From Macrostomum lignano (Eukaryota): a stretch of DNA of 64,000 nucleotides. Below the pieces are notes generated by a model that was not told the origin of the DNA, searched no databases, and saw nothing but the letters and a program-made list of their open reading frames with translations. A program made the translations under genes and the position numbers. Below are positions 4,859 to 39,191 of the stretch, piece after piece (within the stretch, counting starts at the first letter, position 1; every line of letters begins with the position of its first letter). Location of the stretch: the NCBI GenBank assembly GCA_002269645.1, contig NIVC01000440.1:124001-188000 (forward strand), given 5' to 3'.

Positions 4859-6017
4859 TGGACCGCCCGCTGGTATACATGTATTTACATTTACATCAAA
4901 TATGGCACCACTGCAATCACGCATCACTTCATTACCCCAATATCGGGGATATTGGGGACATGTACTGCCCCAATATCGACTAAAATAAATACATGTACCG
5001 TATACATTCATTGAGCAAAATCCACATGCACCTTTTTCGATATAGACTTCACTTCAGCCAGGCCCTCCCATGCAGATCCCTTCTCTCTCCACTCATGCTT
5101 CAGCTCATCAATTTGATCCCCGCGCTGGTCACGACTCTGTCACCACCCCATACAGCAATCCGATGTTGGGGTTCGACGTACGTCAGCAACATGCGTGTAA
5201 ACATCCGCGTCGACGTTTAATTTCGACGTCTACACATGTACATGTAAAAGTAACATCTATTGACGCGGCTGGCAAATGGGTACTTTTGATCATGCAGTTC
5301 AGCGCTGCAGTTTCAGAAGTTTAATTTGTTTAACCATGCAGTCTCAATTACTGCCAAACTATAACCATGCATGTAAACTAACATAAAGTTAAAATTCGTA
5401 CAGTTTTAATTACATTTACACAAAACTATAGTGCTGATCATGGGTGGGAGTTTGCTTATACAATGAAAAACGTACGCTACGTACATGTACATGCATGTAC
5501 GTATGCAGTGTTAATTTCATCATTCACTAAACTGCTTTTGGCCTGATGAGAAAGTCAATTTTGAAAAAAACGAGTATATTTATGCCAGGTGTTGGGTCTA
5601 ACTACATGTTCGACTTACTCGTATCTTAATTACACTTTATATATGTACTCGACAATTGCATGTACATGCAGTGTACATGTACATTGCAATCTGCAGTTGC
5701 ATGAAAGAAAAACACAATCTCAACTTGCAAATTTTACAATTGACAATCTACAGCATCGTCTGTACTATTTCACATGCACATATATTTTAATTGAAAATTT
5801 TTGGGGTTTTTGCTGAACAGTGGCAGAATACTACTATAGTACCAATTGCAATTAGTCCGGGACTTTTGCAGGTTTTAGAAAAGTAACTGTAACGTACATC
5901 TAGAAGGAGCAGAATAGGACCAGAATGATTTGATCAAAACGCAGAGAAAACCGTCTTTATTAAAACAGCTCTTCTGCCGGCTCAGATCCTTTTACGAACT
6001 TCTAGTTTTCTTACTCC

Positions 6018-6881
6018 TGATGTGTTCCTTATTACCCGACTTTCGATAATCAAGGAACAATCAGTTCTAGCTCAACAGCTAGGCAACCCAGTTAGTCAAA
6101 CGAAGGTATTCAATTACCTTTAATCCGGATTTGAATTTCTTGAGTAGTTCTCGCTAGGAACTCGTCAGTAGATCTCGTAGATCAGGCGCCTTGATTCTTC
6201 AGTTGCTCTGGTCCTGGTTCCTCTTGTACTTCCGATAAATTCCTCCGGCCGGTATCTTCCGTCAGGACCAATCAGAGGCCTCGTATCAACAATGGGTACC
6301 CTGCGCCGAACAGCGGTTTGAATTAAGCCTCCTTCTTCTAGTAGTGCCTTTATGCACTCTAGGTATGGCTCCGGAAACCACTGATAGTCCTCTAAGATCT
6401 ATCAGGGGCAGTCCTTCTGGAGACTGCAACCAATGGAGTCTAAACAGACTCAAGAGTCTCAACAGACTCAAATAGACTCAAGTCTCAATAGACTTGAGCG
6501 AGACGTCTCTAACACAACGGGCGCAAATAAGGAAGGCTTACCGCAACAACTCGACCGAGTCTCGATTGACTTGGTAGATCAGGAAGTCCTCCTAAGGCTT
6601 CCTCTTCGGAGCGCTCCTCTTCCGTGGGGAGAATGACTCCGGTACCGCTTCAGATCGCTTGTATTTATAGGCAACTTTTTGCTCCAAAATAGCATCATTA
6701 CAATTCACGTGTTGCGCTAAAAGGGGAAAATGGCTCATGGCGTATTATTCTGGTAACATCTTTTCCTGGTAGCGTGATTCATTCAAAGCTTAGGCGCACA
6801 TGCGTGTACTTACTTACTTATAGTAGTATTATACGATTATCTTCTTTTTTTCTGTTTTTGCGGGAGGCAGAACACTCTACA
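6018..6881 (-). repeat. 3' LTR (864 bp)
   Basis: Matches 15743-16605 at offset 9725; differences seen are one G/C substitution (6064) and a 1-nt poly-T indel. Confidence 0.97.
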
Positions 6882-6884
6882 AAA

Positions 6885-6896
6885 TCTCCCTTTTTT
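6885..6896 (-). other. Polypurine tract AAAAAAGGGAGA
   Basis: Purine run 3 nt upstream of the TG start of the 3' LTR on the element's sense strand. Confidence 0.85.
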
Positions 6897-7564: not shown

Positions 7565-10114
7565 TTAGCGTGGTCGTAGGTTGTAGCCATGTGGCTGGCT
7601 CACATCTGTCGTTTGAGTCTCCTCGTGCTTCGTCGCGATGTGGCGGTTCGTTGAACGCGTGCGATCGGCGTTGTCTAATGTCGGTAGAAACGTCGCCGTG
7701 TCAGTGTTGATCTTCTTCAGTCGATGAATGTGTACGTAGAACTGGTGCTGATGAGGATCTTGCACATTGGCCAGGCGCGCTGTTGTCGGTGACGTTAGTT
7801 GGACCACTCGATAGGGTCCTTTGTACTTCTGTGCATGTTTATGCGTCTGCTGTGGCGGGTAGTGCAGGTAGACGACGTCGCCGGCCGTCAGGGTTGTCGA
7901 TCTCGTGTCGTTGCCAGTGGTCAGAGCCACCTGGTTGTCAATATTGTGCTTGGCGATCTTCCATGCCAGGTGTAGTTGCGTGACGAATTTTTGAATGGAA
8001 GTCGGTACTTCCACGTACTGCGATGGTAGTAATTGCTGTGCGAGCAGATTTGGCGGCTGAAAGTCTCGTCCAAACATCAGGAAGAATGGCGTGTTGTCCG
8101 TTGATCGATGAATAGCACTGTTGTAGGCCATTGTTACAGATTGCAGGTAGATGATCCAGTCTTCCGGCTGTTGGTGCGCGAAATGTGTAATCATCTCGTG
8201 CAGGTTGCGGTGAAACCTTTCAACCATGTTCGCCTTCGGATTGTAGGTTGATGTGTAGATTTGCGTGATGTTGAGAATCTTTACTACTTGCTGAAACAGT
8301 TGCGATGTAAACTGCGATCCGTTGTCCGATGTGAGGTTCTTCGGCGTGCCGTACTTGCAAATGATTTCGTTGAAGAAACCCATTGCAACTGTCTGAGCTG
8401 TGATGTCCGGTATCGGTATGGCGATAGCAAACTTCGAGAAGATATCCAAGGCGGTTAAAATGTAGGTGTAGGCGATGCCCTGGAGGCAGCTCGGTGGCAG
8501 TGGTCCGGTGATGTCGATGCTTAGACAGTCCATTGTAGTGGACTTCGGAATGGACTGTAGCTGCGGTTTCTGTCGTCGTCCTGTCTTTGATGCAGCACAT
8601 GAATGGCAGTTGTTGCAATACTGCTTGATGTCGCCGTACATAGTTGGCCAAAAGTAGTATTGTTCCACTCTTGCAATGGTTTTGGCTGCCGACAGGTGTC
8701 CAGCGAGTGGGTTGTCGTGTAGCTCGTTGAGAATTGCTTGCCGAAACGAATATGGTATGTAGATCTTGGGTTTATTGTCGCTCATCCAGTAGAGCCGTGA
8801 CTTATTGATTGTTAGGTGTTGTCGTTGCTTGCGCAGGAATTTTCGTTCCATGGGACTGAGTTTGATGTTCTTGTCATCGTCTTTAACCGCTAGGTAGAAG
8901 TTGTCGCGCTCGGTTTCATCCACCAACTCTTTGATGTTAGGGATTGGGTGAATGGAGTTGACTTCATAGGCTCTTGACAGGGCGTCCGCGGCTTTGTTGG
9001 TAACTCCTGGTTTGTAGACGAGCTTGTAGTTGTAGTCCTGGATCTTGAGTGTCATCCTGATGAGTCGGTTGTTGGTCTGTCCTTTTGTAGTTACGACGTA
9101 GGTCAATGGTGCATGATCCGTGCGTACTATTGTCTGTATTGGAGAACCATAGATGTAGTAATGGAACTGTCGCAGAGCGAACAAGACTCCTAGTAGCTCT
9201 CGTTCCGTAGCTGACCACTTTGTCTCATTTGGTTTGAGTGCTCGACTGACATACGCAATAGGTCGTTCCTTCTTGTCCTCGGTTTCCTGTAGTAGGACTG
9301 CTCCGAGTCCCGTTCCTGAGGCGTCTGTCTCGATGATAAAGGGCTTGTCGAAGTCCGGATGCTGTAGCAGTGCGTCTGATGTCAGCTGTCGTTTGATTTC
9401 GTCGAAACTTTCTTGTTGTCTCTGTGTCCAGTTGTCTTGCTTCCATTTGTCGAACTTGAGCAGGTCGTACAGTGGCTTTGCTGTCTTTGCGAAGTTAGGT
9501 AAGAACTTCCTGAAGTATTGCGCAAGTCCAAGGAATGATTGGACCTTCGTTATACTGGTTGGCGTAGGAAACTTTTTCACCTTCTCTACGTTGTCTGGGT
9601 CCGGTGAAATTCCTTTGGCTGTCACTTGGTGTCCTAGGCAACGCACGTTGTCTCGGAAGAATTTGCACTTTGTCGGTTGCAGCTTTAGACCTTGGCGTTG
9701 AATGAGCGCTAGGGCCTTCTCCGTAGCTTCGTAGAGTCGCTCGAAATCCTCTCCGTAGGCTAAAATGTCGTCGACATAGTGCAGCAGGTTCGTGCATCCT
9801 GCTAGCATGTATGCTGTTAGTCGACTCATCGTTGCTGGGCTGTTGCTAAGTCCCATCGGCGATCGGTTGTACTCATAGACTTGTCCATTGTAGGTCTTGA
9901 AAGCCGTGTACTGTCGTGATTCTTTCTCGATTTCGATTTGCCAAAATCCATGACGTAGGTCGAACACTGTGAACAATTTTGCCGTGTTGAGCTTTGCTAG
10001 TAGTTCGGAGATCTTCGGTAGGCTTTGCTGATCCGTCGGTATGTACTTGTTCAACAGTCTGAAGTCGCATACGAGTCGTCTTTCGTTAGTCTCCTTCTTT
10101 GTACCAAGAGACAT
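7565..10114 (-). CDS. pol: Pol: RT, RNase H, integrase (joined to the upstream frame across a 1-nt frameshift at ~10098-10100)
   Basis: RRLVCDFRLLN, DLRHGFWQI, YVDD (9767-9778), TDASGTGLGAVL, ERELL, HHCC (H..GH...CHSC), SDNGSQF, ERFHR, KYKGPY. Confidence 0.95.
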   Translation of the reverse strand: MSLGTKKETNERRLVCDFRLLNKYIPTDQQSLPKISELLAKLNTAKLFTVFDLRHGFWQIEIEKESRQYTAFKTYNGQVYEYNRSPMGLSNSPATMSRLTAYMLAGCTNLLHYVDDILAYGEDFERLYEATEKALALIQRQGLKLQPTKCKFFRDNVRCLGHQVTAKGISPDPDNVEKVKKFPTPTSITKVQSFLGLAQYFRKFLPNFAKTAKPLYDLLKFDKWKQDNWTQRQQESFDEIKRQLTSDALLQHPDFDKPFIIETDASGTGLGAVLLQETEDKKERPIAYVSRALKPNETKWSATERELLGVLFALRQFHYYIYGSPIQTIVRTDHAPLTYVVTTKGQTNNRLIRMTLKIQDYNYKLVYKPGVTNKAADALSRAYEVNSIHPIPNIKELVDETERDNFYLAVKDDDKNIKLSPMERKFLRKQRQHLTINKSRLYWMSDNKPKIYIPYSFRQAILNELHDNPLAGHLSAAKTIARVEQYYFWPTMYGDIKQYCNNCHSCAASKTGRRQKPQLQSIPKSTTMDCLSIDITGPLPPSCLQGIAYTYILTALDIFSKFAIAIPIPDITAQTVAMGFFNEIICKYGTPKNLTSDNGSQFTSQLFQQVVKILNITQIYTSTYNPKANMVERFHRNLHEMITHFAHQQPEDWIIYLQSVTMAYNSAIHRSTDNTPFFLMFGRDFQPPNLLAQQLLPSQYVEVPTSIQKFVTQLHLAWKIAKHNIDNQVALTTGNDTRSTTLTAGDVVYLHYPPQQTHKHAQKYKGPYRVVQLTSPTTARLANVQDPHQHQFYVHIHRLKKINTDTATFLPTLDNADRTRSTNRHIATKHEETQTTDVSQPHGYNLRPR

Positions 10115-12399
10115 GGTGATGAGTATGCTGATATGGCTTTGCTAATGATGCCGTGTTTCAGCATTTTGTCGATAATCTCATCGAAGTGCTGTTGCAGATG
10201 CTTGGCGATCGGGTACGGCTTGCACTGAATTGGTTCCGTGTGCGGCAGAAGTTTGATTTCCTGTTTGATGTCCTTGGCTCGTCCGATGTCGTAGTCATGG
10301 TGGCAGAAAGCGTCGTTGTACTTCCACAACAGCTGTCGAACTTTCCTCTTTTGCTGTTCCGTAATCGGGCTGTCATCCAAATTGATCTTCTTTTGAAATT
10401 CTTCCTCTGTTAGTCGTGGAGTCGCTTGTTCAATCAGCATAACCGATGCCTGAGTGTTGAGATGACCGATGCACATTCCTTGCCGTAGATGAACCACTTC
10501 TGCGTTCGGGTTGAAGATTTGCACTGGCAGTTGCTTATCTTTTGCAACCAGCACTAGTGCCGTAGGCATCATGATTTGATGTTTTGCCGTAATTCTCCTG
10601 TGCGGATCAAATATCATTGCTTCATCTGCTGCGCTGGTCGCTTTCGCTCTGACCCAGCATGCGCTTTCAGGCTGGATGATGACATCTTGCTGCAGAGTTA
10701 CTTTCGGTAGTACTCGAATCTGGTTGATCAGTGGTTGCTCCACCGTGTCGATCCTAAATGTTTGCTTGTTGAAGTCGAAGGTCAATGGTAGTCGAAGCTG
10801 TTTGAACGTGTCTATTCCAACGATGACGTCTTGGTTTGGTAGTCTGTCGATGATGTACGTCGGGACCGTCAGCTGTTTATTAGCAATTTTCAAGTCAATA
10901 TCTGCTTTTCCTAGAATGTTGAGCGAATGTCCTCCTGCTCCTGCAACTGCGATTGCTGCTGGTCGTACCGCGAGTCGTAGCTTGTTGCATAATTGTTGCG
11001 AGATGACTGTGATCGAGCTGCCTGAATCCAGTAGTGCTCGACATGGCAAGTTGTTGACAATGACCTGAGCCATTGCTTTGCCAATCTCGGCGTGTAGCGT
11101 GCAGACGTAGTTTTCCGGCCATTTTGGCTCGTGTTGTTCAGGCTGATAAGTAGGTGGCTGCATTCTCGGTGCTGTTGGTGTTGTCGGAATCGATGGGTAC
11201 ATTCGCGTTGATGGTGTCGGCTGTCCTTGAGTTTCTTGTCGTGCATCCTCTGTCAATTCCAAGTTGTTGTCTTCTTCTCTTGGTGTCTTCTGCATGATGG
11301 CGTTCACTGTTCGTTTCGCTGTGGGACAAGTGTTGCTGAAGCATCGTACTATCGACGAGATGATAAAGATCGCCGTGACTATCCAAACAACGCAGGCGCT
11401 GTAGAAGATGAAGCCTTGATATAGGCTGCCTCTTCCGTTAAGCAGCTCCAAGAAGCTGTTTGTCCAAAACGATTGGATGGCGTTGTCCATCGACACAAGG
11501 ACCGGGAAATTGCGTGTTCCCGTTCCTTTATTCTTTCGTGTGAAGAGTTGACGAATCATCTTTCGTTGAGTGATGAACGCTTGCAAGAAGTCGTTGATGG
11601 TCCATCCTGGTGTTATTTCATCGAGTTGGATATCGGCGAATGGTGTGTACTTCGTTCTGTTGAACCGTATCTTCAGATCGTCCATGTCGTACGTTTCGTC
11701 GACTATCACTTCTGGTTCTGTGATGTTTGCTGTCGTTCCTGTTGTTTTAATGACATGTAGTGCATCGTCCAGTTGATAGTAGTTTGCTGCAGTGGTGCAA
11801 GGTCTTGGTATTGCGGTTCCAACGATGATGTTGTGTACCGTGTCCAAGAATCCTTGTATTCTTTTGCCTTCGTAGAATGCTTCAATTCTCGGCTTGTCGT
11901 AGCAAGTTGTTGAAGTGTTCGACGGTAAGATGTTGAAGTGCTGTATCGGCGTGCACTTGTATATCAGGAGATGTCCATATATCGGAATTGCCAGAACCTC
12001 TCTCATTCCAGTGATCTTGCGAAATGTCATCGTAGGGTTGACATAGTAGTTCTGTCTTGCGTAGTTCAAGTTGATTGCGTGCATTTTGCAAGTTAGCTGA
12101 ACCAGTGACCGATATAAGTGGTTTAGCTGGTTATGCAGGTTGTGATCCAGCGCCGTGATCTTTGCTGACAGTAGTAGGTTTGATACCAATCGTGGACGTT
12201 TTATGTCGCGTCGTTGCCTTTCTTGTTGTTGATACGTTCCGTTTATGATCGCCAGGAAGGTTCGTTTATCGTCATCCTTTACATAGACTGGTATTTCTTG
12301 CTCCGAGATGAATAGCGTCTTGTCCGTATTCTTGCATTTGAGTTCCTGTTCAACCGGCTTCTTTTGAAACGTCAAGGCCAAGTCTCCTGCTTTTGCCAA
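10051..12399 (-). CDS. Envelope C-terminal half + TM + cytoplasmic tail + aspartic protease + start of RT (same frame as gag)
   Basis: gB-like motifs, TM 11347-11412, protease ALLDSGS (DSG 11020-11028), RT N-terminus ending SAYSSPCLLV. Confidence 0.9.
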   Translation of the reverse strand: MAKAGDLALTFQKKPVEQELKCKNTDKTLFISEQEIPVYVKDDDKRTFLAIINGTYQQQERQRRDIKRPRLVSNLLLSAKITALDHNLHNQLNHLYRSLVQLTCKMHAINLNYARQNYYVNPTMTFRKITGMREVLAIPIYGHLLIYKCTPIQHFNILPSNTSTTCYDKPRIEAFYEGKRIQGFLDTVHNIIVGTAIPRPCTTAANYYQLDDALHVIKTTGTTANITEPEVIVDETYDMDDLKIRFNRTKYTPFADIQLDEITPGWTINDFLQAFITQRKMIRQLFTRKNKGTGTRNFPVLVSMDNAIQSFWTNSFLELLNGRGSLYQGFIFYSACVVWIVTAIFIISSIVRCFSNTCPTAKRTVNAIMQKTPREEDNNLELTEDARQETQGQPTPSTRMYPSIPTTPTAPRMQPPTYQPEQHEPKWPENYVCTLHAEIGKAMAQVIVNNLPCRALLDSGSSITVISQQLCNKLRLAVRPAAIAVAGAGGHSLNILGKADIDLKIANKQLTVPTYIIDRLPNQDVIVGIDTFKQLRLPLTFDFNKQTFRIDTVEQPLINQIRVLPKVTLQQDVIIQPESACWVRAKATSAADEAMIFDPHRRITAKHQIMMPTALVLVAKDKQLPVQIFNPNAEVVHLRQGMCIGHLNTQASVMLIEQATPRLTEEEFQKKINLDDSPITEQQKRKVRQLLWKYNDAFCHHDYDIGRAKDIKQEIKLLPHTEPIQCKPYPIAKHLQQHFDEIIDKMLKHGIISKAISAYSSPCLLVQRRRLTKDDSYATSDC

Positions 12400-13197
12400 A
12401 AACGTATTCGACAGTAGTCCTCCTTCAACTGTGTGATACTTTTGAAGCTTGCAGTCAATTTCCGGCTCTACTTCCCATGCGAAGAAATATTGTCATGACT
12501 TGTACGGTTCCTCATAGTGTGATTGTGCTCTGTGCTCAATCTGCCATCGATAGTCTTGATGATATGTTGGACTCAGTGGTAGACTGTGTAGTTCTTCCTT
12601 CCGTAGAATTGGTGTTGGACACCATCCTTCACTGTATCGACATTCGCTTAGTTGCAGCTGTAACGATTCCATTTTCTCGTACGGATTGTAGTAGAATGGA
12701 ATATTTCTGATCAAGTAGCTGTTGCGTGCCATATATTCTTTCCATTTTCCGAAGAAGTGAATGTATCGACCGTTGGCTGAATTCTTTGTTCTGAACAGCT
12801 GTGCGTTGCCGACCTTCTCATCTGGTTCCAGTTCACCATCCCTTTAAAATAGTGTTTGATTCCATTGTAGGCATTCCGCGTGCGACACATGTAGCTCATG
12901 TTGTTTGAATCGGATCCGGTTCCATTGTCCGCGCCAAACTTTTTCCACCAGGTGCTTGTCTCTGAAGCATACTATTCCGTGTTGTCGATGCTTCTTGATG
13001 TTAGCCTTGTAGAGATCGAGTGTAATCTTCTTTGGTTTCGTCTGGTTTGTCTTGAAGTAGCTGCATTTGATGTCGGTTGGTATCTTGTAGATCATCGGTT
13101 GGATATGCGCATCCGTTGGACAAATCATTGGTTTTTCCGTTGCCGTTGCTTTGGCGACTACTGCTATCAGTAGTATCACGATGATCCAGTATAGCCA
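11347..13197 (-). pseudogene. env: Envelope glycoprotein (class III fusion protein, herpes gB / chuvirus G-like), two in-frame stops in this copy
   Basis: Signal-like WLYWIIVILLIAVVAKA (13147-13197), cysteine-rich ectodomain, six N-x-S/T sequons, RQRR site (12208-12219), C-terminal TM; stops at 12844-12846 (TAA) and 12493-12495 (TGA) with the frame unchanged. Confidence 0.8.
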
Positions 13198-15030
13198 GTT
13201 TTTCCACTTCTTGGACCTTGCCGTTGTCTTTGCTGGCATTGGCCGCGATCGCCATTCGTTATCTTCCATGTCCGCATCATATCCTTCCGGTTGTTCCATT
13301 GGCTGTTTCAGGCGGAAGACTTCTGATTCGCTTTGCCTTTTGGTTATTTCATTATCTTCGTCTGCGGCTTCTTCCGATGTTTCCGTTGTTTCACTCCATT
13401 GCGTTTGGTATCTTTTCTCTGTCTTGTAGTCGACCGTTTGAATATAGGCTTCACCATTTCGTTTGTATCGGATCTCGTAGCATTCGTCGCTGTCGGAACT
13501 CGGCTTTTCTTTCATCTGTTCTTTTTCCATTTTTTCATCTTTCCATTGTATTTCGTAGCCTTGATCGCTGTCGGAACTTAGATTTTCCGCTCTCAGTTCT
13601 TCCTGCATTCCTCTTTCGGCTCGGTATCCGTTCGTGTCATCACGCACCTCGCAGTCGTGATCGTTGCCGTAACTCCTACATTCTTCTTCTTCTTTCATTT
13701 CCTTGTCTTTCATGCTCGTTTTGTCGTCATCCACTGTTGTCGATTCATAGTTGTTTTCTCTGCCGGTCTCCATCTTTTCTTCGTTACCGATGTCGCTCTC
13801 CGCCTCCTCCCTTTTCTTGTGATTTACTTTCTTCCTGTTTTCTCTGCTGTCTCCGGTGGTCTCTTTTAATTTGATCATTTCGGTTTCATTCGCCTCTTCC
13901 GTGTTGTCAGTGTTGTCCTCGTGCGTCGTCTTCTTTTCGATCAAGCTGATGTCAAGTTCCGGGACTGTGAAGTCCATTTCCAAGTCGTCAATTGTGAACA
14001 CTTGCTGTTCTTGCTGTTCATTTTCCGGTGTGTACGTGATGGCATTCGCGTATCGTGGCATTGCTTGCGTCGGCTGTCTTTGTGTGTATCTGGCGTTGCG
14101 TGGCCTGTAGCCATCATTTCTGAAGCGACCGTCATTTCCGTAGCGGCCATCATTTCCGAAGCGGCCATCCTTTCCGAAGCGTCTCATGTCTTGTTGGCGA
14201 TTTTGATATTGCTGCCATGGTTTCTGCGGCTTTTGATTGTTGAATGTCTGTCGTGGCTTGTCGTATCTTGTCGACCAATGGGGACAATTAATCTGATAAT
14301 GTCCTTCTCGTCCGCAGTAGTAACATCTGGCTGAGGCTCGTTCATTTCGTCTTTTTTGTTCGGCGATAGCAGCTGTCTGGTGCTGCATTAATTTGTTTAA
14401 TTGCTGCGTCAGTTTCTGCACTTCATTGTTGCCTGTCGTCATTAATGGGGCACTGGCTTCCCATTGCATTCCGCAACGCAAAAGGTCTTCTTCGGTTTCG
14501 ATATTTTCACGCAAAAGTCTATCCCGAAGTGACGGCTGTGCGTTGTTTATTACGTGCAGGATTAGGTTTTGTTCGCGATCCATCAATCGCTGTCTTTCTC
14601 TGGCGGCCAATTCTGCTGCTCCCAGTGGCGGTTGGTCCGCAGCTTGCAACGGTGGCTGATGCAGTGCCTTAATTATCTGGCGGATATCGTCCACAAAGGC
14701 GAGGAAGGATTCTGTTGCTTGCATCCTTCTGTTATGTAACTTGTGCAGCAGCACTGATCTGTTTGTGCCGCAACGGTTGAAATGCGCGCGCAGTTGAATG
14801 ATTAGTGCTGGATAATTTTGCTGTGTTGCCGCATCCAGCTTGCCGTAAATTTCTCGCGCAGTACCTTGGAGAAGAGGTGGCAGCAGCTGTGCCTTCTCTG
14901 GATTTTCTAGGTTGTATTCCCTACATACCAGGTCAAAATGGTCGACAAATGTGTTAAAATCTTTCTCCATCGAGAAGGTACCGACCGTTTCTTTGATGTC
15001 TCTGTGTACCGTTGGATTGCGCCGCGCCAT
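12844..15030 (-). CDS. gag: Gag (capsid + CCHC zinc knuckle) fused in frame to an acidic spacer and the envelope N-terminus
   Basis: Ty3-type capsid segment (F..F...C...LL..LL.G.A..Y..L...Y..L...L..HF), CYYCGREGHYQINC at 14284-14325. Confidence 0.92.
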   Translation of the reverse strand: MARRNPTVHRDIKETVGTFSMEKDFNTFVDHFDLVCREYNLENPEKAQLLPPLLQGTAREIYGKLDAATQQNYPALIIQLRAHFNRCGTNRSVLLHKLHNRRMQATESFLAFVDDIRQIIKALHQPPLQAADQPPLGAAELAARERQRLMDREQNLILHVINNAQPSLRDRLLRENIETEEDLLRCGMQWEASAPLMTTGNNEVQKLTQQLNKLMQHQTAAIAEQKRRNERASARCYYCGREGHYQINCPHWSTRYDKPRQTFNNQKPQKPWQQYQNRQQDMRRFGKDGRFGNDGRYGNDGRFRNDGYRPRNARYTQRQPTQAMPRYANAITYTPENEQQEQQVFTIDDLEMDFTVPELDISLIEKKTTHEDNTDNTEEANETEMIKLKETTGDSRENRKKVNHKKREEAESDIGNEEKMETGRENNYESTTVDDDKTSMKDKEMKEEEECRSYGNDHDCEVRDDTNGYRAERGMQEELRAENLSSDSDQGYEIQWKDEKMEKEQMKEKPSSDSDECYEIRYKRNGEAYIQTVDYKTEKRYQTQWSETTETSEEAADEDNEITKRQSESEVFRLKQPMEQPEGYDADMEDNEWRSRPMPAKTTARSKKWKNWLYWIIVILLIAVVAKATATEKPMICPTDAHIQPMIYKIPTDIKCSYFKTNQTKPKKITLDLYKANIKKHRQHGIVCFRDKHLVEKVWRGQWNRIRFKQHELHVSHAECLQWNQTLF

Positions 15031-15729
15031 GTTGTTGATAGGATAGAACGGTAGTTCAAGATCTGGATCGATTTGTAACGGATCGTCCAGTGTGGTGCTT
15101 GCCTCGGAATAAACCTCGACTGTAACGAATTGCCTTGCGGTGTCGATCTGTTATTCGCTGGCCTCGAAGTTGCGGCTTGCTGCCACTGGTTGTCCTCAAA
15201 TGAACTTGTTCTGTTCGCTTGCTGATTTCGCACTTATGCGGCGTCCCGCAAAGTGTATCTTCAAGTTGAAGTGGGCTTTGTCTTCTTGCTTTGCAAAGTC
15301 TTTTTTCTCTTCTTTGACTTTCTCTCTTTGTCAATTAACTCCGCTCTTCACGAAGTTTCAATTAATTTCGGTTTTGTTTTAGTTTTTGTGCCGGCAAAAT
15401 GTTTCAGTTATTTTTTTGTTTGTTTTGCGTCGATGATTCTTTTGTTTTCGGTTTGTTTTCAGTGTACCGACGAAGTTAATTTCGGTTTTGTTTTAAACTC
15501 ACACTTGCTCGAGCTCGTCAAAACAAAATTTTTACACGCGTGCTCAACTGTACTCAAATTTGACAGGTGCTCAAACCTGTACACCAAAATTTACTCGAGT
15601 TTCAAAACGTAACGGACTTAAAAAGTGTTAACTCTAACATGTGCGCGCAAAATTAATGAAGTCGCTCTGTCGTCACTTTACAATAGCTTGGCCAGGCTAT
15701 TGCTCAAATTTTGAGTAGTGCCGAGAGGG

Positions 15730-15740
15730 CGAGATCACCA
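15730..15740 (-). other. Primer-binding site TGGTGATCTCG
   Basis: TGG-initiated, 2 nt downstream of the 5' LTR end; pairs with a tRNA-Trp-type 3' end if two G-U wobbles are allowed. Confidence 0.7.
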
Positions 15741-15742
15741 AT

Positions 15743-16605
15743 TGATGTGTTCCTTATTACCCGACTTTCGATAATCAAGGAACAATCACTTCTAGCTCAA
15801 CAGCTAGGCAACCCAGTTAGTCAAACGAAGGTATTCAATTACCTTTAATCCGGATTTGAATTTCTTGAGTAGTTCTCGCTAGGAACTCGTCAGTAGATCT
15901 CGTAGATCAGGCGCCTTGATTCTTCAGTTGCTCTGGTCCTGGTTCCTCTTGTACTTCCGATAAATTCCTCCGGCCGGTATCTTCCGTCAGGACCAATCAG
16001 AGGCCTCGTATCAACAATGGGTACCCTGCGCCGAACAGCGGTTTGAATTAAGCCTCCTTCTTCTAGTAGTGCCTTTATGCACTCTAGGTATGGCTCCGGA
16101 AACCACTGATAGTCCTCTAAGATCTATCAGGGGCAGTCCTTCTGGAGACTGCAACCAATGGAGTCTAAACAGACTCAAGAGTCTCAACAGACTCAAATAG
16201 ACTCAAGTCTCAATAGACTTGAGCGAGACGTCTCTAACACAACGGGCGCAAATAAGGAAGGCTTACCGCAACAACTCGACCGAGTCTCGATTGACTTGGT
16301 AGATCAGGAAGTCCTCCTAAGGCTTCCTCTTCGGAGCGCTCCTCTTCCGTGGGGAGAATGACTCCGGTACCGCTTCAGATCGCTTGTATTTATAGGCAAC
16401 TTTTTGCTCCAAAATAGCATCATTACAATTCACGTGTTGCGCTAAAAGGGGAAAATGGCTCATGGCGTATTATTCTGGTAACATCTTTTCCTGGTAGCGT
16501 GATTCATTCAAAGCTTAGGCGCACATGCGTGTACTTACTTACTTATAGTAGTATTATACGATTATCTTCTTTTTTCTGTTTTTGCGGGAGGCAGAACACT
16601 CTACA
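15743..16605 (-). repeat. 5' LTR (863 bp)
   Basis: Near-identical to 6018-6881; followed on the sense strand by the PBS. Confidence 0.97.
16387..16394 (-). promoter_or_regulatory. LTR TATA box TATAAATA (copy at 6662-6669)
   Basis: Consensus TATA on the element's sense strand ~210 nt into U3. Confidence 0.65.
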
Positions 16606-17116
16606 CTCCCACATTAATTAACTCTATTTAATTTAGCGTTACTTTAAAATGTAACTGGCCTAAATGAAACAAAAGAATGCCTAAATAAATCCATTTGAAA
16701 CAATTTCATGTTAAAAACTACAAGGGTTTTAAATTTTTTGACATTCATAAAGCGAATTTGTTTAAACCTTTCAACTGCTCGCTCGCAAAGCGGGACGACA
16801 GATTCAATTTCTCATTTTTTGATTAATTATTGGACCCGCATGCACGCACGCACGCACAAACGCACGTTAAGTAATCTTGTTGACCTTAGCCCTCGGTCCC
16901 CGGTAACCAGTCACGACCTCGACAAATCCCAGATCTCTCCGTCCTCGTCTTGGCTTCAGATTACTTCTAACCAGCCCTCCAGAATTAGCATTGAGATAGA
17001 CCTTGACTTGAGGTTTAAACTTGCGTTACTTGCCTTAAGGTTAAGCAGCATAGATTGCCATAGAAATTTTTTATTAATATAGGATCGGATTTTAGGTATT
17101 CTGAGAAAGTCAGAAA

Positions 17117-20100: not shown

Positions 20101-23100
20101 TGATTGTTAATTCACTCTTGCAATCAATGGATAAAATATTACTTATTTTTTACTAATTTGTAATGTGCAATCTATGAAGTTTTAAAATCATAAAGTAGAA
20201 CTAAAAATGTTACAGGTCTGTAACTAAAAAGGTTCAAAGTTTTTCAATTGATTTGAGCAATTTTGGTATATTGTATCTGAAAATAATATGGGCTTTGCTT
20301 TATTGGGTCAAGTTTTTATACAAGTTAGAACTTTTTGGTATAATTATTCTTTTACATTCACTGGTCAGCTTGACCGACTAGTCGGAAGCTACTATTAGAT
20401 TCTTTACCAATTTATGATAGTTCTCAGCTGTTATGTTGCTTAAGATTTTATTGAAAACTTTGGTAAAAGTATCCCATGTAGCTCTTTTTAGATAGATTAG
20501 TCATCAGTGTCTCTCATTAGTTGCTAGACTTGGGAGCCATTAAATATACTAGCCTTTAGTTTCTTCTCAGTGAGTACAACATTATTGAAGCATTATCCTT
20601 GCTTATTAAGTACATTTGTAAACTGCTTGATAAGGCCCAGTTTTATATGTAGTTGTGGGAACAATATCTTGTTGCAATTGACTAATGGCTCATGGATGAC
20701 ATGTGCAAGGCTTTAGACACTCTTTGGCTGCACTTTTAAAATTTTTTGTCTATTTATTGCTCAACTGCACAAAAAGCAAGGATACTTGCTTTAGTTTGAC
20801 TATAAGCCCAGTAAAAATGAACCATCTTTAAATCTATGCATATGATCCATTCATGATCACAGTATGGCTATTTTTAGCAGAACACACTTGATGTCATTAT
20901 TGTTTCTTCAGTGTTATCCAATCGTCCAGAGGTATTGATGGATAATATTGCTATTATATAGGTATAGCAGTATAAATTTCAGAGTCCTTGCTACAGTCAA
21001 TATAAAGCTGCCAGTCCAATGCTTCTATACCAATCTTTTTAAAGCCCAGGCATATCTATACAAAGCACAAGGTTTTTCTATTGCACAAAAAATTCTAAAA
21101 TTTATCCTGTCTAATTCAAAATGCTATTATCCAAGCAGGCCCTTTACCAAAACGGTGCTTTGACTTCAGCCTAGAAAGCAACAGTGCACTAGCTTATTAG
21201 GATAAATAAAAGTCATGGACCAAGTTGTTCAATTTACCTTGAAAGAAGAGCTGACGTGGGGTACTCTTGTCTGCAGGCAAATAGATGTTATTATCACTAG
21301 CTGCATCATCAACTGAGTTGCTGATTTACTGCAGCCTAGCATAAACTGGCACCAGAATTTCTTCATAGTGAGGGACTGGTCAACACACAATTTCGAGATC
21401 AAGATACATGAGTATATGGTGATTGCAAATTGTTTCAGTTAATGCCAAGTCAACACTAGGCCACAGACTACATAGAAGTGGCAGCAGTTGCAGTAGTGGT
21501 CTAGTGGATCATAAATGGATATTCATACTTTATATGACCCTTAGAAGCAGTGGTGTGATTCAGGCGCGAAAATGGCGCGAATGCGCGAATCCTGGAGGTC
21601 TGGCGCGAAATTTTGTGGAACCATGGGCGCGAAAATTGCATTCTTATTTTCTGCTTTTTACACTTATTCTCTTGTCAGACAGTATGAAATACAAGAATGT
21701 CATAGCTTAGGAGATTAATCCCGAGAATTTCGAGATTCGTGGAGAATTTCGTGGTCGCAAAGAAGCAAAGTGACACTGAAGATGTGGCTGCTACGTCTGC
21801 AAGGGCGGCAGAGATCAGATGTGTTGTCAGGATTGCACTAAGAATCGCAGCTTCGAGTCAGAAGAGGACCTTGCCGAGGATCTGATGGCCATTTGCCCAG
21901 ATTCAAAGATTCCACCCAACATCGCCAACAAGAAGTTCAGGCGGGACACGGCTGGGACTTGAGAGACATGTTAATTGGTAGCCAGACGCATCTTCAAAAG
22001 TGTCATCAATTGACTTATTTGGCTGTCAGTAGAATATCATTGGCATGGCGCGAAAATTTTCAGTCGGCGCAAAATTTGGCAAACTTTCCAATCACACCAC
22101 TGCTTAGAAGGAGCAAACAAACTCTTGGAGCCATTTGTTTATTAGTTGTTAGTTGTTTATTTGTTAGTAGACAAAAAGGCAATTGATAAAATCATGTCAC
22201 ATTTTTTATTCATTTATTATTAAAATATAGTTGGTTATCTAGCCTAATGAAAAAAGAATTTGGCTTATATAATTGTGAATATAATCTTTCTATTTAATCC
22301 CAACTCTAATTTGCCAACATTATATTAGGAAAAATAACTGCTTATTTTAGCCCACAGACATCATGTTATATCAATTTTTTATTATCCTCTCTTATTTAAA
22401 CATTGGAACCATAATGCCATTTGGCATCTTGGGTCCAAATTCAAATGCCAAATAAAAACAGGTTGCTACCATCAGAGCATTACTTAAAGAGTGAAATTCT
22501 AGCATCTTTTCCATACCCTTTTACCTTGCTAGAATAAACTTGTCAGTATAAGCTAATGTAAATTATTATTATATAAAATGCTTCATCTTTGTACTCAATC
22601 ATGTTAGCTGGCGACTGGCTGCAAGGCCCCTACGTGTACGCCCTCTATGAGCACTACAAGCTGTCCAAGCGGGACATTGAGTTCCTATTCGTTGCCGGAT
22701 TCGGAGCCAGCATGCTGTTTGGCACTGTTGTCGGCTCTTTTTCCGATAAATTTGGTCGCCAACGTAACTGCATTCTGTATGGCATTATCTACAGCTTGTC
22801 CTGTCTGACTAAGCACTCCAGCAATTTCTGGGTACTGTTGCTAGGCAGGTTGCTAGGCGGCACAGCTACTAGTATACTGTGGAGTGGCTTTGAAACCTGG
22901 CTGATACACGAGCATCATAGTAGAGGCTACAGCGATAGGCTACTAGAAGAGATTTTTAGTTGGGCCACTATCGGCAATAGCATCGTAGCCATTGTGTGCG
23001 GCGTTGCTGCCCAATACGCTGTAGACCTATTCGGCTTTGTTGCTCCATTCGATATGGCTCTGATCATTCTAGTCATTATGACCGTCATTGTTTGGCTCAA

Positions 23101-23709
23101 ATGGCCGGAAAACTACGGCGATGCCAGTGCAGATTTGAAGAAGAACTTCTCTGACGCTTTGACAACTGTGCGCACTGATAGGAGAGTCTTGTGTCTGGGC
23201 GTTGTACAGTCCCTGTTCGAGGGCAGCATGTACTGCTTTGTACTGGAATGGACTCCGGCATTGACTCCGTCTGCTGCCTGTGAGATATTCTTACTTTTTT
23301 TGAAGGGGGCGGATTTAGTCATTTCTATTAAACATCTGTCTCGTAATATAAATATAACTTCCTCACCATTGCTCTTCTTCATCTTATCATCCGTTTTTTC
23401 ACAATTTGCTTTCCATCATGCGCTCAAACTCAATCAGAGTCTGATCCTTTTAATATCTTAAGTCCCTCAATTAACTTTTCCATGCCCTGTTCTTTCCCAT
23501 TTCTTATTCGTCTCCCTCTCCTGACCTTCCTCTCCCTCTCCCTCTCCCCTGTCCCTTCTCTCTCCATCTCCCTTTCCCTCTCTCCCACTCTCTCACTCTC
23601 CCTCTCTTTCCCTTTCTTCTTCATCTCTCCCTCTCTCTCACTCTACCTCTCCCTCTCTTTCTCTCTTCCTCATCTCTCCCTCTCTCTCACTGTCTTTCTC
23701 TTTCTCTTC

Positions 23710-23777
<68 letters not shown>

Positions 23778-25500
23778 CCTCTCTTTTCCTTTCTCTCTTC
23801 CTCCTCTCTCCTTCTCTATTTTTCTCTCCCTCTCCTTCCCTCCTTTCTTTCTCTCTCTCTCTTCCTCTTACCCTGTCCGTCTCTTCTGCCCCCTTTGCCA
23901 ATGCACAGTTCTCATACTGTGACTATCCCGCCCTACCCAGCCACCATGAGCAGCGGTCACGCGGGGAAAATCCCGCACGGCTACATCTTCGCGGCCTACA
24001 TGGTTAGCCTGATGATTGGCGGCCAGCTGTTCTCGTTCTGCTGCAACCGGTCCAAGCCGGAGTCCTTCATGCGCTGGGTGTTTGGCCTGAGCTCAGTCTG
24101 TCTGGTTCAGCCAGCCCTGATGCGCAGTGATTCGCTGATCCCAATCACCTTTGTTGGCTTCCTTGTGTTCGAGTGCTGCGTTGGACTGTTCTGGCCGGCT
24201 ATTGGCACTATGAGGAGCAAATATGTGCCGGATTCCAGTGAGTTTGGGCTTTGGATAAAGACTTGATTGATTAAAACACATAAATTGTCTAAACTATGTT
24301 GAGATTTCTGGTCAGACAAAGACCTGAAATGTCTGTTGAGTTATCTGAGATCATCTGAATGGATAAAGACTTGGAATGTAAGTTTTGACTATCAGAGATC
24401 ATCTAATGGACAAAGACCTGGAATATCTGTTTTGGTTATCAGAGATCATCTGAATGGACAAAGACCTGGAATGTCTGTTGTGTTATCTGAGATTATCTGA
24501 ATGGACAAAGACCTTGAATGCCTGTTGAGCTGATAATGAGGCAATCGCACCGCACAACCCGCAGTTCGCGCCACCATCATGAACCTGTTCCGTATTCCGC
24601 TCAACCTGGTTGTGGTGATTATTCTAACTCAGAATTTTCCAATCGTGTTCATCTTCAAGTGCTGCGTATTTTTCCTAATCATCTGCTGCGGCATTCAGTT
24701 CTACTTGGAACGGTGAGCTGAGTTCGCGTTTAGTACTGATGCCAATGAGTTCAGTGGGCTATAATCTCTGTTTACATGAGTTCTGCTCAGTAGCTTTGCG
24801 CGTCTAAGCCTTAAGCCTAACAAAATCCATTAGGACAAAAAATATGTTTTTTTTTCTCGTGGGCAAACACAGTCTGCACTATTGAAATGGGTAACAACTG
24901 TGCAAAATGCATTTCCTGCTTTTAGAAAAATTGGCATTTCTTTAATATCATTTAGAATTGACTTAATCTGTCTATTTTATGGCTAGGAAACTTAATAAAC
25001 TTTTCTAATCTCTCTGAATCTCAATCGGTAGTTTCAGAATCTCAATCGGTAGTTTCTGAATCACGATCGGTAGTTTCTGAATCTCAATCGGTAGTTTCTG
25101 AATCATGATCGGTAGTTTCTGAATCACAATCGGCAGTTTCTGAATCTCAATCGGCAGCTTCTGAATCAAAATCGGTAGTTTCTGAATCACGATCGGTAGT
25201 TTCTGAATCACAATCGGCAGTTTCTGAATCACGATCGGTAGTTTCTGAATCACAATCGGCAGTTTCTGAATCACGATCGGTAGTTTCTGAATCACAATCG
25301 GCAGTTTCTGAATCACGATCGGTAGTTTCTGAATCACAATGGGCAGTTTCTGAAATCTTAGCCAGTCTTGAATGCATTTTAAATAATTTTGTTGTTTTTC
25401 CAGCCTTACTCGCGATGAAGCCCCGGTGGAGTCTGCAGACGGTCAGACGGCAGAAAAGTCTACAGAAGATGACCGAAAAGAGTTTCAAGGCATCGCCTGA
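17117..25500 (+). CDS. MFSD5: MFS molybdate-anion transporter (MFSD5 family), 456 aa; exons 17117-17273, 22608-23279, 23941-24237, 24565-24712, 25404-25500
   Basis: YL..YLL.MAGDWLQGPYVYALY, FE.W...EH, FEGSMY.FV..WTP, IPHG.IF..M, G.FWP..G..RS, RATIMN.FR.PLN; all introns GT-AG and phase-compatible; total 1371 nt. Confidence 0.93.
20375..21250 (-). pseudogene. Decayed DNA-transposon transposase (resembles CMC/Chapaev-3 type) in MFSD5 intron 1
   Basis: Interrupted minus-strand motifs: LNNLVHD..LS, LLLSRLK, DWQLYIDCSK, HEWIICIDLK..FLLG, KYPCFLC, EPLV..KI.FP.LHIKLGLIKQF, EKKLKA.IFNG.Q; many stops and frameshifts. Confidence 0.7.
21548..22102. mobile_element. hAT-type MITE (555 bp)
   Basis: Perfect 13-bp TIR CAGTGGTGTGATT/AATCACACCACTG and perfect 8-bp TSD CTTAGAAG (21540-21547, 22103-22110); subterminal GGCGCGAA motifs. 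Confidence 0.92.
23480..23880. repeat. Polypyrimidine/(CT)n tract in MFSD5 intron 2
   Basis: Direct inspection. Confidence 0.9.
24290..24535. repeat. ~47-bp degenerate tandem repeat x5 in MFSD5 intron 3
   Basis: Recurring ATCTGAATGGACAAAGACCTGGAATG at 47-48 bp spacing. Confidence 0.85.
25008..25345. repeat. 21-bp tandem repeat (~16 copies) in MFSD5 intron 4
   Basis: Unit TCTGAATCACGATCGGTAGTT. Confidence 0.95.
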
Positions 25501-26371: not shown

Positions 26372-27893
26372 CCCCATAGAATCGCCCCTGATACCCAACA
26401 GTCTGCCCAATAGAATCGCCCCTGATACCCAACAGTCTGCCCAATAGAATCGCCCCTGATACCCAACAGTCTGCCCAATAGAATCGCCCCTGATACCCAA
26501 CAGTCTCCAATAGAATCGCCCCTGATACCCAACAGCCTGCCTCATAGAATCGCCCCTGATACCCAACAGCCTGCCCCATAGATTCGCCCCTGATACCCAA
26601 CAGCCTGCCCCATAGAATCGCTCCTGATACCCAACAGTCTGCCCTATAAAATCTCCCCTGATACCCAACAGCCTGTCCCATAGAATCGCCTCTGATACCC
26701 AACAGTCTGCCCCATAGATTCGCTCCTGATACCCAACAGCCTGCCCCATAGATTCGCCCCTGATACCCAACAGCCTGCCCAATAGAATCGCCCCTGATAC
26801 CCAACAGCCTGCCCCATAGAATCGCTCCTGATACCCAACAGCCTGCCCCATAGAATCGCCCCTGATACCCAACAGTCTGCCCAATAGAATCGCCCCTGAT
26901 ACCCAACAGTCTGCCCCATAGAATCGCCCCTGATACCCAACAGCCTGCCCCATAGATTCGCCCCTGATACCCAACAGTCTGCCCAATAGAATCGCCCCTG
27001 ATACCCAACAGTCTGCCCAATAGAATCGCCCCTGATACCCAACAGCCTACCCCATAGAATCGCCCCTGATACCCAACAGCCTGCCCCATAGATTCGCCCC
27101 TGATACCCAACAGTCTGCCCAATAGAATCGCCCCTGATACCCAACAGTCTGCCCAATAGAATCGCCCCTGATACCCAACAGTCTGCCCAATAGTATCGCC
27201 CCTGATACCCAACAGCCTACCCCATAGAATCGCCCCTGATACCCAACAGCCTGCCCCATAGATTCGCCCCTGATACCCAACAGCCTGCCCCATAGAATCG
27301 CCCCTGATACCCAACAGTCTGCCCAATAGAATCGCCCCTGATACCAACCAACAGCCTGCCCCATGGAATCGCCCCTGATACCCAACAGCCTGCCCCATAG
27401 ATTCGCCCCTGATACCCAACAGTCTGCCCCATAGAATCGCCCCTGATACCAACCAACAGCCTGCCCCATAGAATCGCCCCTGATACCCAACAGTCTGCCC
27501 CATAGAATCGCCCCTGATACCAACCAACAGTCTGCCCCATAGAATCGCCCCTGATACCAACCAACAGCCTGCCCCATAGAATCGCCCCTGATACCCAACA
27601 GTCTGCCCCATAGAATCGCCCCTGATACCAACCAACAGCCTGCCCCATAGAATCGCCCCTGATACCCAACAGTCTGCCCCATAGAATCGCCCCTGATACC
27701 AACCAACAGCCTGCCCCATAGAATCGCCCCTGATACCCAACAGTCTGCCCCATAGAATCGCCCCTGATACCAACCAACAGCCTGCCCCATAGAATCGCCC
27801 CTGATACCCAACAGCCTGCCCCATAGAATCGCCCCTGATACCCAACAGCCTGCCCCATAGAATCTCCCCTGATACCCAACAGCCTGCCCCAAA
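26372..27893. repeat. 34-bp tandem array (~45 copies) with 37-bp variant units
   Basis: Unit GATACCCAACAGYCTGCCCCATAGAATCGCCCCT; variant GATACCAACCAACAG in the distal third. Confidence 0.95.
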
Positions 27894-28009
27894 TCGATAA
27901 ATCGATAGCAACATCAGTTGAAGCTTTGCCAACCCTCATTGCAGCGCAGTTGCAGACCGCTCACCACGCTACATATGTACTAAAAGCCACTTACCTATCT
28001 AAATACGCA

Positions 28010-29458
28010 ATGCACGTGTCTACAGAGAAAGGCTCTCGCAGACGAATTTTTAACACTGATGAAGATTCACCAGATGCTGCACTGCAATCCTTGCCGGCCA
28101 GCGCAGTTACAATGTGTGTAAAAGAAAACTGCTACTATTATCCGCTTGGTTGCACTCTTAATTGCGTCGAGAATAATCGCTACGAGTTCAAGGGACATTG
28201 CTCGCTTACCTGGGCGAAAATCACCGGCGATGCTTCTGTTGTAAAAACGCCTCACAATGACGACCTGCCAAACACAGTTTTAAATCCCAAGTACACAGGT
28301 AAAAAGCCAATCAGTCGCAGTCTGTGCGCAATGGCAAATTCGCCAGATGGCGGGGTTGTTCTCTGCGGCGTCACCGACAGCGGTCGGGTTGGCGGGTTGC
28401 CTTTCTCCGAACCCGAGAAGGAGCACGTGATGCTGGCGCTTAATAAATTGTTTAGCGATTTCCGACCGCCAGTTGGTCCGGAACGGTATCGGGTGCACTT
28501 TGTGCCCGTTCTGGCCCCGGGCGAGGTCGACGAGTACATTAGTTGTCACGCTCCTCCAGACTTAGAATCTTCAGCGAGTCGTGTTGTTGAAGTTTCTAAA
28601 TCTGACCAAGTTGACCAGTCTAGCTTTTTTGGCTCTTTGTCAAACAATAATGGCGCTAACGATGGTTTAAGCAGCTCATCGCCAGTTAAAACTTGGATGG
28701 ATTCCCCATTTTCAAGCGAGCATCCGGACAGTTTACTGTCAAAGCCTTTGCTAACTCTTGCAAAGAATGCCTCATCAGATTCAATGCTTAATTACAAATC
28801 TGGCAGTCAAAGCGATTTGATGAATCAGCCTCTGATGTCTGATATTGATTCTGAGTTAAAGACTCCGTTGCCAACCAAAGAGAACAAAGACTCCGAGTTG
28901 CCACCGACCAAAGAAGCAGACAAAAATTCCGAGGAGTCGTCTTTGTCGGAAACTCAGTCGGGTAGTAACGAGTCCAGGCCGCACCGGTTGCACGACTTCA
29001 TGCGCTGCTGGTGCTTCTTGCTTCGGGTGGACAGATATACCGACGGCGTGTCCACTAGAAGATACGTATTGCGAATTGAGATGCTGCCCCAGATATTTAC
29101 TACTATTTCTGTTGACCGTTATTTGGCTTTAAACGACAATTATTCAACCGTAGACGACAATAATGACGGCACTGATGAAGCTGATTGCAGCGATGCTGAG
29201 GATTCCATTGACTTTGAAGAAGAAGATGAGTTATTATCTATGGAGCCGTTGTCAATTAAAATACCGGTGTTTGTGTGCAACGAAGAGGGTCTTTGCCAGG
29301 TGCGCTGTCTTGGCGCCAACAGGTGCTTGTCTGCGCTGCAGGTACAGCAGCTGGCCGAGGAGCGGGCACTGTCCGCCCTGCAGGACGAGCTTGTTGAACT
29401 GCGCCGCGATGTCAGACAGTTGCGTCAGTTGCGCGATCAAGTATTCGGGGATACCTGA
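28010..29458 (+). CDS. Schlafen/AlbA_2-domain protein with long Ser-rich insertion and C-terminal coiled coil (first ATG 28010; frame open from 27926)
   Basis: ENNRYEFKG; SLCAMANSPDGGVVLCGVTDSGRVGG; later YVLRIEM and CQVRCLGANRCLS segments; heptad-like C-terminus. Confidence 0.8.
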   Translation: MHVSTEKGSRRRIFNTDEDSPDAALQSLPASAVTMCVKENCYYYPLGCTLNCVENNRYEFKGHCSLTWAKITGDASVVKTPHNDDLPNTVLNPKYTGKKPISRSLCAMANSPDGGVVLCGVTDSGRVGGLPFSEPEKEHVMLALNKLFSDFRPPVGPERYRVHFVPVLAPGEVDEYISCHAPPDLESSASRVVEVSKSDQVDQSSFFGSLSNNNGANDGLSSSSPVKTWMDSPFSSEHPDSLLSKPLLTLAKNASSDSMLNYKSGSQSDLMNQPLMSDIDSELKTPLPTKENKDSELPPTKEADKNSEESSLSETQSGSNESRPHRLHDFMRCWCFLLRVDRYTDGVSTRRYVLRIEMLPQIFTTISVDRYLALNDNYSTVDDNNDGTDEADCSDAEDSIDFEEEDELLSMEPLSIKIPVFVCNEEGLCQVRCLGANRCLSALQVQQLAEERALSALQDELVELRRDVRQLRQLRDQVFGDT

Positions 29459-34321: not shown

Positions 34322-34575
34322 GGGGTTGTAGCCCAGTGGTTAAAGCGTCGTCGGGGGTTCGATTCTCGACCCTGCACTCGAAACAATTTGTGTCCTTGAG
34401 CAAGACATTTAACTCTGCATTGCTTCAGTTCACCCAGCAATTTAAGTGGATAACTGAGGGTGTGTGGCGACCCCGCGGTCCTTGGACTGAACAGCCGTAC
34501 GCAGCCTTCAGATGCGCCGCGCAATAGCTGCGGCTGAGCTGTCGGTTGCACATCTGGCCATTAGGGCAGTGGTAA
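34322..34575 (+). mobile_element. tRNA-derived CORE-like SINE, family B, copy 1
   Basis: A box TAGCCCAGTGG, B box GGTTCGATTC, CORE-like TGTGTCCTTGAGCAAGACATTTAAC; second copy inverted at 40081-40354. Confidence 0.8.
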
Positions 34576-35556: not shown

Positions 35557-36097
35557 CGCACAACCCTCCTGAAATTGATATTTTTTAATATTAGTATTGT
35601 TGCTTTTTTATAATGCACTACAGAGTACAATAATACACAGGCTGGACATATGGTAAAAAGTCTTGAACTTTTTAAATTGAATTTACTTTATCATTTAAAC
35701 AATAGCTATACGAGTACATTATCAGACAGTCCATGCGGGGTTCGAGCTAAAAAAACAAGATGCTACGCTCGTTTAAATATGTTTTTGAACTTCCTTTTTG
35801 TACTGTACAATCACAGGCTTCATCTTCATCGCCGCCACTTTGGTCAGGGTATAGCTGTGCCCAGGGCACAATTATTCTTCAATTTTGCCTATGCACATTT
35901 TATTGTACACTTACACACATTGTACCCATAAACCATTTTTTCTCTTACCCTGGAAGCTTTCGTACCCATAGTTTTATATAAATGTTACACGTAATCTTAT
36001 CCAGGTCTTATCCAGGTCTAGCTCGTGAAATTACTAAAGAAGTTTTAATGTCTTTTTAGTGAAGCAAGCTGACGCAGAACCATATCTAACAATTGAT

Positions 36098-39000: not shown

Positions 39001-39191
39001 TAATCGTAACCGATCTGAGGGTAGCGGGCGAGAGTGGCTGATAGAAGCTGACCACATAACTGGCAACCTGATCAGGTGCAATTTGTCGGTTATACATGCG
39101 TGGTTGGAAAATTCGGGAACAATTTTTATAGAAACTGAGGTGAGACTTTTTGCAATGTAATCTGTCTCTGGTGCGCATGCGTCCGCCCGTA

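Follow-up and report, generated by a model that had tools for sequence, protein, structure and literature searches.

A gB-type envelope gene between gag and protease in a Gypsy retrotransposon of the flatworm Macrostomum lignano

Host element and its surroundings

The window, a 64,000-nt stretch of contig NIVC01000440.1 of Macrostomum lignano, holds a complete Gypsy LTR retrotransposon of 10,588 nt on the minus strand. The Ty3/Gypsy hallmarks are present, namely TG..CA LTRs, a target-site duplication, a primer-binding site, a polypurine tract and the order protease–RT–RNase H–integrase, and the two LTRs are one substitution and one gap column apart. A single frame runs from 15030 to about 10,100 through Gag, an acidic linker, a glycoprotein, an aspartic protease and the start of RT; a frame break near 10,100 separates RT, RNase H and integrase from this upstream frame in the window copy. 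The parts of the element are:

16606-16609 and 6014-6017: target-site duplication CTCC, 4 nt, flanking both LTRs
15743..16605, minus strand: 5′ LTR, 863 nt, TG...CA
15729..15740, minus strand: primer-binding site, 2 nt from the LTR; the plus strand reads GCGAGATCACCA
13213..15030, minus strand: gag, from the first Met, with a CCHC zinc knuckle and a long acidic linker; env is in the same frame
about 14325-14278, minus strand: CCHC zinc knuckle in gag (zf-CCHC E 0.0011, below the cut-off)
10810..11067, minus strand: aspartic protease, in frame with gag and env (Asp_protease_2 E 1.8e-10)
7565..10141, minus strand: RT, RNase H and integrase (RVT_1 5.4e-27, RT_RNaseH_2 2e-37, Integrase_H2C2 7.5e-21, rve 1.3e-14)
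6885..6896, minus strand: polypurine tract
6018..6881, minus strand: 3′ LTR, 864 nt

The order of domains along the frame places the envelope gene (env) between gag and protease, a point absent from the preliminary description of this DNA; that description had named a Gypsy element as the carrier, and the domain order agrees. Two other carriers were considered and rejected. A BEL/Pao element with a chuvirus-like env would bring BEL-type gag, protease or integrase domains, none of which was found by Pfam at E up to 1; the Gypsy-type RT_RNaseH and Integrase_H2C2 domains were found instead. A plain viral insertion (EVE) was rejected because env sits in frame within an LTR element.

The acidic low-complexity linker (13213-14000) lies between the zinc knuckle and the env signal sequence and carries a 70-nt internal duplication at 13462/13540; the related protein P0003 has a different linker there. 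Over the LTR bins at 15743-16605, summed contig depth was several-fold above that of the internal region in two of four sequencing runs, a pattern that solo LTRs or relatives sharing the LTR would produce; depth is not a copy number here.

Elsewhere in the window, all on the plus strand, lie host MFS_5 transporter exons (22577-24266, E 7.9e-103), a 539-aa frame with a Schlafen AlbA_2 domain beside 34/37-nt tandem arrays (27839-29458, E 2.6e-8), an uninterrupted 1,040-aa frame with EGF-like domains (36038-39160) and a 778-aa poly-Q/poly-H C2H2 zinc-finger frame (53126-55462). The EGF-like frame is flanked by inverted repeats at 34375-34531 and 40135-40289, which may be two inverted small repeats or mark a duplicated cassette.

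The envelope gene and its predicted fold

The gB-type glycoprotein is coded in one frame at 13197-11347 on the minus strand, with an N-terminal hydrophobic stretch at one end of the interval and a C-terminal one at the other. Its features, and the motifs from which the preliminary description argued, are:

13141..13197, minus strand: putative internal signal sequence and first membrane span (span 1), basic residues before it, hydropathy peak 2.19
11488..13143, minus strand: predicted gB-type class III ectodomain, spanning 552 codons, with 12 cysteines and 6 N-glycosylation sequons
residues 79-114 of the env protein (P0002): G..C....V...W.G.....S..EC segment
12922..12942, minus strand: putative fusion loop 1, tip of a long beta hairpin with two Trp, model strands 52-71 and 74-84
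12844..12846, minus strand: in-frame stop, private to the window copy
12742..12789, minus strand: putative fusion loop 2, rich in aromatic residues, between model strands 114-118 and 135-152
12493..12495, minus strand: second in-frame stop, private to the window copy
12208..12219, minus strand: furin-type site RQRR, in a flexible low-pLDDT loop preceding the central helix
12040..12180, minus strand: predicted central helix, 47 residues, equivalent to gB domain III, model helix 322-368
12096-12067, minus strand: LTCKMHAINL
12039-12007, minus strand: NPTMTFRKITG
11982-11944, minus strand: IYGHLLIYKCTPI
11907-11884, minus strand: TCYDKPRI
11877-11797, minus strand: FYEG, QGFL, NII and RPC
11344..11424, minus strand: putative C-terminal membrane anchor (second span, span 2), hydropathy peak 2.39

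The motifs all fall in one minus-strand frame, where the preliminary description had placed them. The likeness to a gB motif string that it proposed was tested here by searches, with env translated with X at its two stops. Pfam gave a match to PF24664 Monjiviricetes_fusion over residues 349-501 (E 8.7e-6; 24.4 bits, under the 27-bit cut-off). A single-sequence search of PDB sequences returned five matches, all with E >0.4 and none of them gB, and a word-indexed homolog search returned one match only, P0003. A HMMER scan of 1.84 billion representatives yielded 57 matches, 46 of which were combined with the query into a 47-sequence alignment, A1; the profile built from A1 matched herpesvirus gB in 51 of its 51 PDB matches (best E 2.5e-16).

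Structure prediction points the same way. In the AlphaFold model (pLDDT 80.9, pTM 0.57) the furin loop is followed by a 47-residue helix, and a long beta hairpin is present as well. Among the PDB matches listed by Foldseek all were herpes gB (best E 5.7e-23, TM about 0.47), with TM-scores of only about 0.43-0.50 overall and rmsd of 12-13 Å. VIA-align superposed 424 residues on gB (Z 12.8, rmsd 8.8). In a viral structure library, nyami-, chu- and rhabdo-like and entomopox glycoproteins matched at 9-14% identity with E down to 1e-24, nyamivirus G proteins being among the top fold matches; at such identities no viral glycoprotein stands out as donor. By fold and profile, then, env is a real class III glycoprotein of gB type, as judged from its sequence and predicted structure. 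The preliminary description's class III, gB- and chuvirus-like assignment is borne out by the PF24664 match, by profile matches confined to gB and by the gB fold: the predicted structure came out as gB-type class III under Foldseek, and the 47-sequence profile found herpesvirus gB. Both aromatic loops sit at the expected strand tips of the model, and class III anatomy suggests that they would act as fusion loops.

Env shares with herpesvirus gB the whole-ectodomain fold, the long central helix, the furin loop and a sequence signal in domains III-IV, at 10-14% identity in the Foldseek table; it differs in being shorter, with a single anchor, inside a retroelement polyprotein and without gH/gL partners. 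With Jingchuvirales and Nyamiviridae glycoproteins it has in common the PF24664 signal and the Foldseek similarity, and it differs from them in its place inside a Gypsy polyprotein as well as by the low identity noted above. The mosquito BEL/Pao elements with a chuvirus-like env (PMC7642597) differ in carrier, which is Gypsy here, and in that env lies here inside the polyprotein.

Much of this architecture recurs among relatives. All 12 ectodomain cysteines are conserved at 97-100% in A1, and two Arg of RQRR are conserved in 84% and 89% of aligned relatives. A segment like span 1 occurs in 28 of 31 fused relatives and one like span 2 in 29 of 35. Env also carries an insertion of ~38 aa that is absent from most relatives.

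Copies, relatives and origin of env

The M. lignano genome (G000) contains at least 41 DNA and at least 83 protein matches. Of the 83 env protein matches, ten belong to frames without a stop that span 2,480-2,538 aa, as long as an entire gag-env-pro-pol; 12 env matches share one score. At the DNA level, env of the window copy and that of the largest young subfamily are ~89% identical. The env stops of the window copy are present in none of 19 further copies, most of which are also free of the break near 10,100. The window copy is thus young and broken unless it was mis-assembled at these places, its breaks being either mutations or assembly errors. Programmed read-through of the two env stops was rejected, since none of the 19 other copies carries them, and so was a programmed frameshift before RT, since other copies run as one frame. 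For 28 pairs of natural copies, dS could be calculated in 21 and was saturated in 7; over those 21 pairs env had a dN/dS of 0.047-0.103, and by comparison the protease/RT-start region gave 0.026-0.122. On these substitution rates, env is kept by strong purifying selection and is not decaying.

Beyond these copies, many of the 36 matches scanned with Pfam are gag-env-protease(-RT) polyproteins. By motif, 21 of the 56 non-self matches, many of them fragments, have a CCHC upstream, 17 have a protease-like motif downstream and 10 have both. Some carry unusual neighbours: in P0009 and P0030 an env relative shares one frame with a NADAR domain, and in P0030 with a nucleotidyltransferase domain as well, possibly as extra cargo in gag-env elements or as gene-model fusions. 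P0025 and P0014, both gag-env-pol-like proteins, have two protease-like regions each.

Three deep env-bearing lineages are present in the genome. The first comprises the window family and a subfamily at 61-64% identity (L021-L023). The second (L034/L035/L046, on C1189, C368 and C1674) is gag-env-pro-pol with three CCHC knuckles, and its env is ~25% identical to that of the window, one match lying in a 2,458-aa frame. The third (P0005/L039/L048 with L036-L038) has frames of about 2,850 aa, and its env is enlarged near the furin loop by an insert of some 190-290 aa; the RT segment of P0005, labelled Macrostomum lignano at NCBI, has zero branch length to the genomic locus L039. The env tree, for which 39 of 61 sequences were kept and 22 partial ones dropped, groups the sampled in-genome lineages and P0006 in one clade with support 1.0. 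In the RT tree (24 sequences, 211 columns, rooted at the midpoint; L047 is represented by its second and weaker RT match), env-bearing in-genome loci form one clade (0.88) apart from gag-env-pol proteins of other sources. Both trees are small and midpoint-rooted with SH-like support only, and the RT tree has no labelled nematode RT. Env-bearing also tracks RT similarity to L034: env lies upstream of RT in 6 of 6 retrieved loci scoring at least 216 bits and in 0 of 8 scoring 198 bits or less (upstream side only). Three deep env-bearing lineages in one clade point to one old acquisition, and the comparison of sequences fits a single ancient gain of env by this lineage, after which env diverged together with gag and pol.

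Elements of this kind are already in print. In the text and tables of Chary and Hayashi (eLife 2026, PMC13524379) from which we draw, gB-type env is as common as F-type in Gypsy elements, the order GAG-ENV-POL is given for Nematoda, Bryozoa and Platyhelminthes, all elements are classed as Gypsy, ectodomains are noted as lying between two transmembrane domains, and the authors favour an ancient origin with rearrangement. The view in the preliminary description that gB-like envelopes have been reported mainly in BEL/Pao elements is out of date in the light of that survey, where gB-type env is widespread in Gypsy elements. Supplementary file 1 of PMC13524379 has a single Macrostomum row in its table, Platyhelminthes_Rhabditophora_Mlig_errantivirus_2, with ENV_HSV, 16 copies, LTRs of 863/864, a total of 10,591 and the primer-binding site GCGAGATCACCA at 2 nt from the LTR. 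This entry and the window element agree in LTR lengths, primer-binding 12-mer and spacing and env type; both are multicopy, and the GAG-ENV-POL order of the flatworm entries is that of the window element. They differ in that the window copy is broken and 3 nt shorter (10,588 against 10,591). The element thus matches the catalogued Mlig_errantivirus_2 and is therefore a broken copy of a known kind, not a new capture. Membership of that family, matched by anatomy and not by sequence alignment, is in our judgement probable, jointly with the whole explanation favoured below. The entry is absent from the structure list and the flatworm gB sequence sheet of PMC13524379, and the table there has no separate row for the two further deep Macrostomum lineages. 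In the text passages of a Macrostomum heat-shock preprint (10.1101/2024.12.18.629116), no envelope gene passage was found.

The nematode endogenous retroviruses (NERVs) reportedly have a continuous gag-env-pro-pol frame and a nyamivirus-like env. On that definition the window family shares their continuous frame, and they resemble it in being metavirus-type with env before pol. The env-before-pol order is reported by Sacco et al. (2022, doi 10.1099/jgv.0.001739, as cited in PMC13524379); the host phylum differs, as does the RT clade in the PMC13524379 tables.

The explanation that we favour, and regard as probable, is that the gene is an env of gB type belonging to a GAG-ENV-POL Gypsy element (an 'errantivirus' in the wide sense), made as part of a polyprotein and stemming from one old acquisition. 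The independent capture by a Gypsy lineage suggested in the preliminary description looks unlikely, as the nearest relatives include many retroelement polyproteins of the same layout and viral glycoproteins are only 9-14% identical. The position of the lineage apart from other gag-env-pol groups in the RT and env trees nevertheless makes a separate old acquisition or a module swap possible. Under such a separate acquisition, env would have come from an RNA or DNA virus into the flatworm Gypsy lineage, independently of the nematode and bryozoan gag-env-pol elements, so that insertion between gag and protease would be a repeated solution. Besides the trees, this reading can draw on the ~38-aa insertion missing in most relatives and on the clades of PMC13524379, whose tables put Mlig_2 in RT clade S and IN clade H, away from other flatworm elements (E), with the nematode and bryozoan entries examined falling in B, E and R. 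Yet the relatives nearest in env are carried by retroelements of the same layout, 10 of 56 having both flanking motifs; all 12 cysteines are common to the retroelement-borne relatives; no viral donor stands out; and recombination of an env module between elements accounts for the pattern, with no need for a new capture from a virus. We therefore consider a separate gain unlikely. One old acquisition, for its part, is compatible with a fresh viral capture and with an env module passed between elements, and does not tell the two apart.

Proposed polyprotein topology and expression

How env would be produced from the middle of a frame can be modelled from its two spans. Basic residues are distributed asymmetrically around them in relatives, with mean K+R of 2.7 before and 0.9 after span 1 and of 0.8 before and 2.1 after span 2, and an internal span occurs in only 2 of 44 relatives. 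In the model, the polyprotein would be made with Gag in the cytosol; span 1 would thread the ectodomain into the ER lumen, and span 2 would stop transfer, returning protease-RT-RNaseH-integrase to the cytosol. Signal peptidase would cut after span 1, leaving Gag membrane-anchored, furin would cleave at RQRR, and the protease of the element would detach Gag from the linker and Pol from the tail of env. Trimers of env would then form on particles that bud from this same membrane, and may fuse them into neighbouring cells, probably germline. Processing of this kind recalls flavivirus polyproteins. Retroelements mostly down-regulate Pol, and a 1:1:1 output of Gag, Env and Pol is unusual, so unseen splicing or pausing may exist. 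The main text of PMC13524379, in the portion used here, makes no mention of polyprotein, splicing or frameshift, so the production of env from mid-frame is not addressed there.

Two rivals concern expression and function. Most env-bearing retroelements splice env, and here too env could be made from its own spliced or subgenomic RNA while a spliced gag-pro-pol RNA skips env, the continuous frame being secondary; Met codons 32-52 residues before the ectodomain in the window family would suit this. Those positions, however, are not kept in the 63% subfamily, only 8 of 31 relatives have a Met in the 25 aa preceding span 1, and deep lineages keep the frame open all the way from the linker through env to the tail, which makes separate splicing improbable. 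In contigs from four sequencing runs, three of them guessed to be RNA, 0 of the 15 joints listed (of 28) skip env from gag to protease, a count whose bearing on splicing or expression is nil either way. Env might instead be a non-fusogenic passenger, kept for another role such as receptor interference, membrane tethering or host benefit. Herpes gB needs partner proteins, and the element is without them, as touched on in the discussion of PMC13524379. Both putative loops, the furin site, the central helix and the anchor are nevertheless retained in a family that is multiplying, with dN/dS under about 0.1. The G proteins of related RNA viruses, moreover, fuse without partners. We give the passenger reading the least credence of all.

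The kind of element, and by anatomy the family, is known from print, and as a discovery the locus carries little weight. What is added here is a fold for the Mlig_errantivirus_2 entry, selection figures, two further lineages and the topology model. The literature searched, with most subscription papers outside its reach, held no functional test of a gB-type Gypsy env, and the discussion of PMC13524379 calls the entry mechanism of gB-carrying errantiviruses unknown. If the separate gain judged unlikely above is true, the gag/protease junction would be the one site that lets a two-span glycoprotein ride in a single retroelement polyprotein, with Gag anchored to the budding membrane and Pol tied to the env tail in flavivirus style, and a regenerating, transgenic laboratory flatworm would harbour these elements as infectious, gB-driven particles. 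A young, multicopy and strongly conserved family in so tractable an animal would be a good place to study a stand-alone gB-like protein, and to ask whether such a protein spreads a retroelement between cells.
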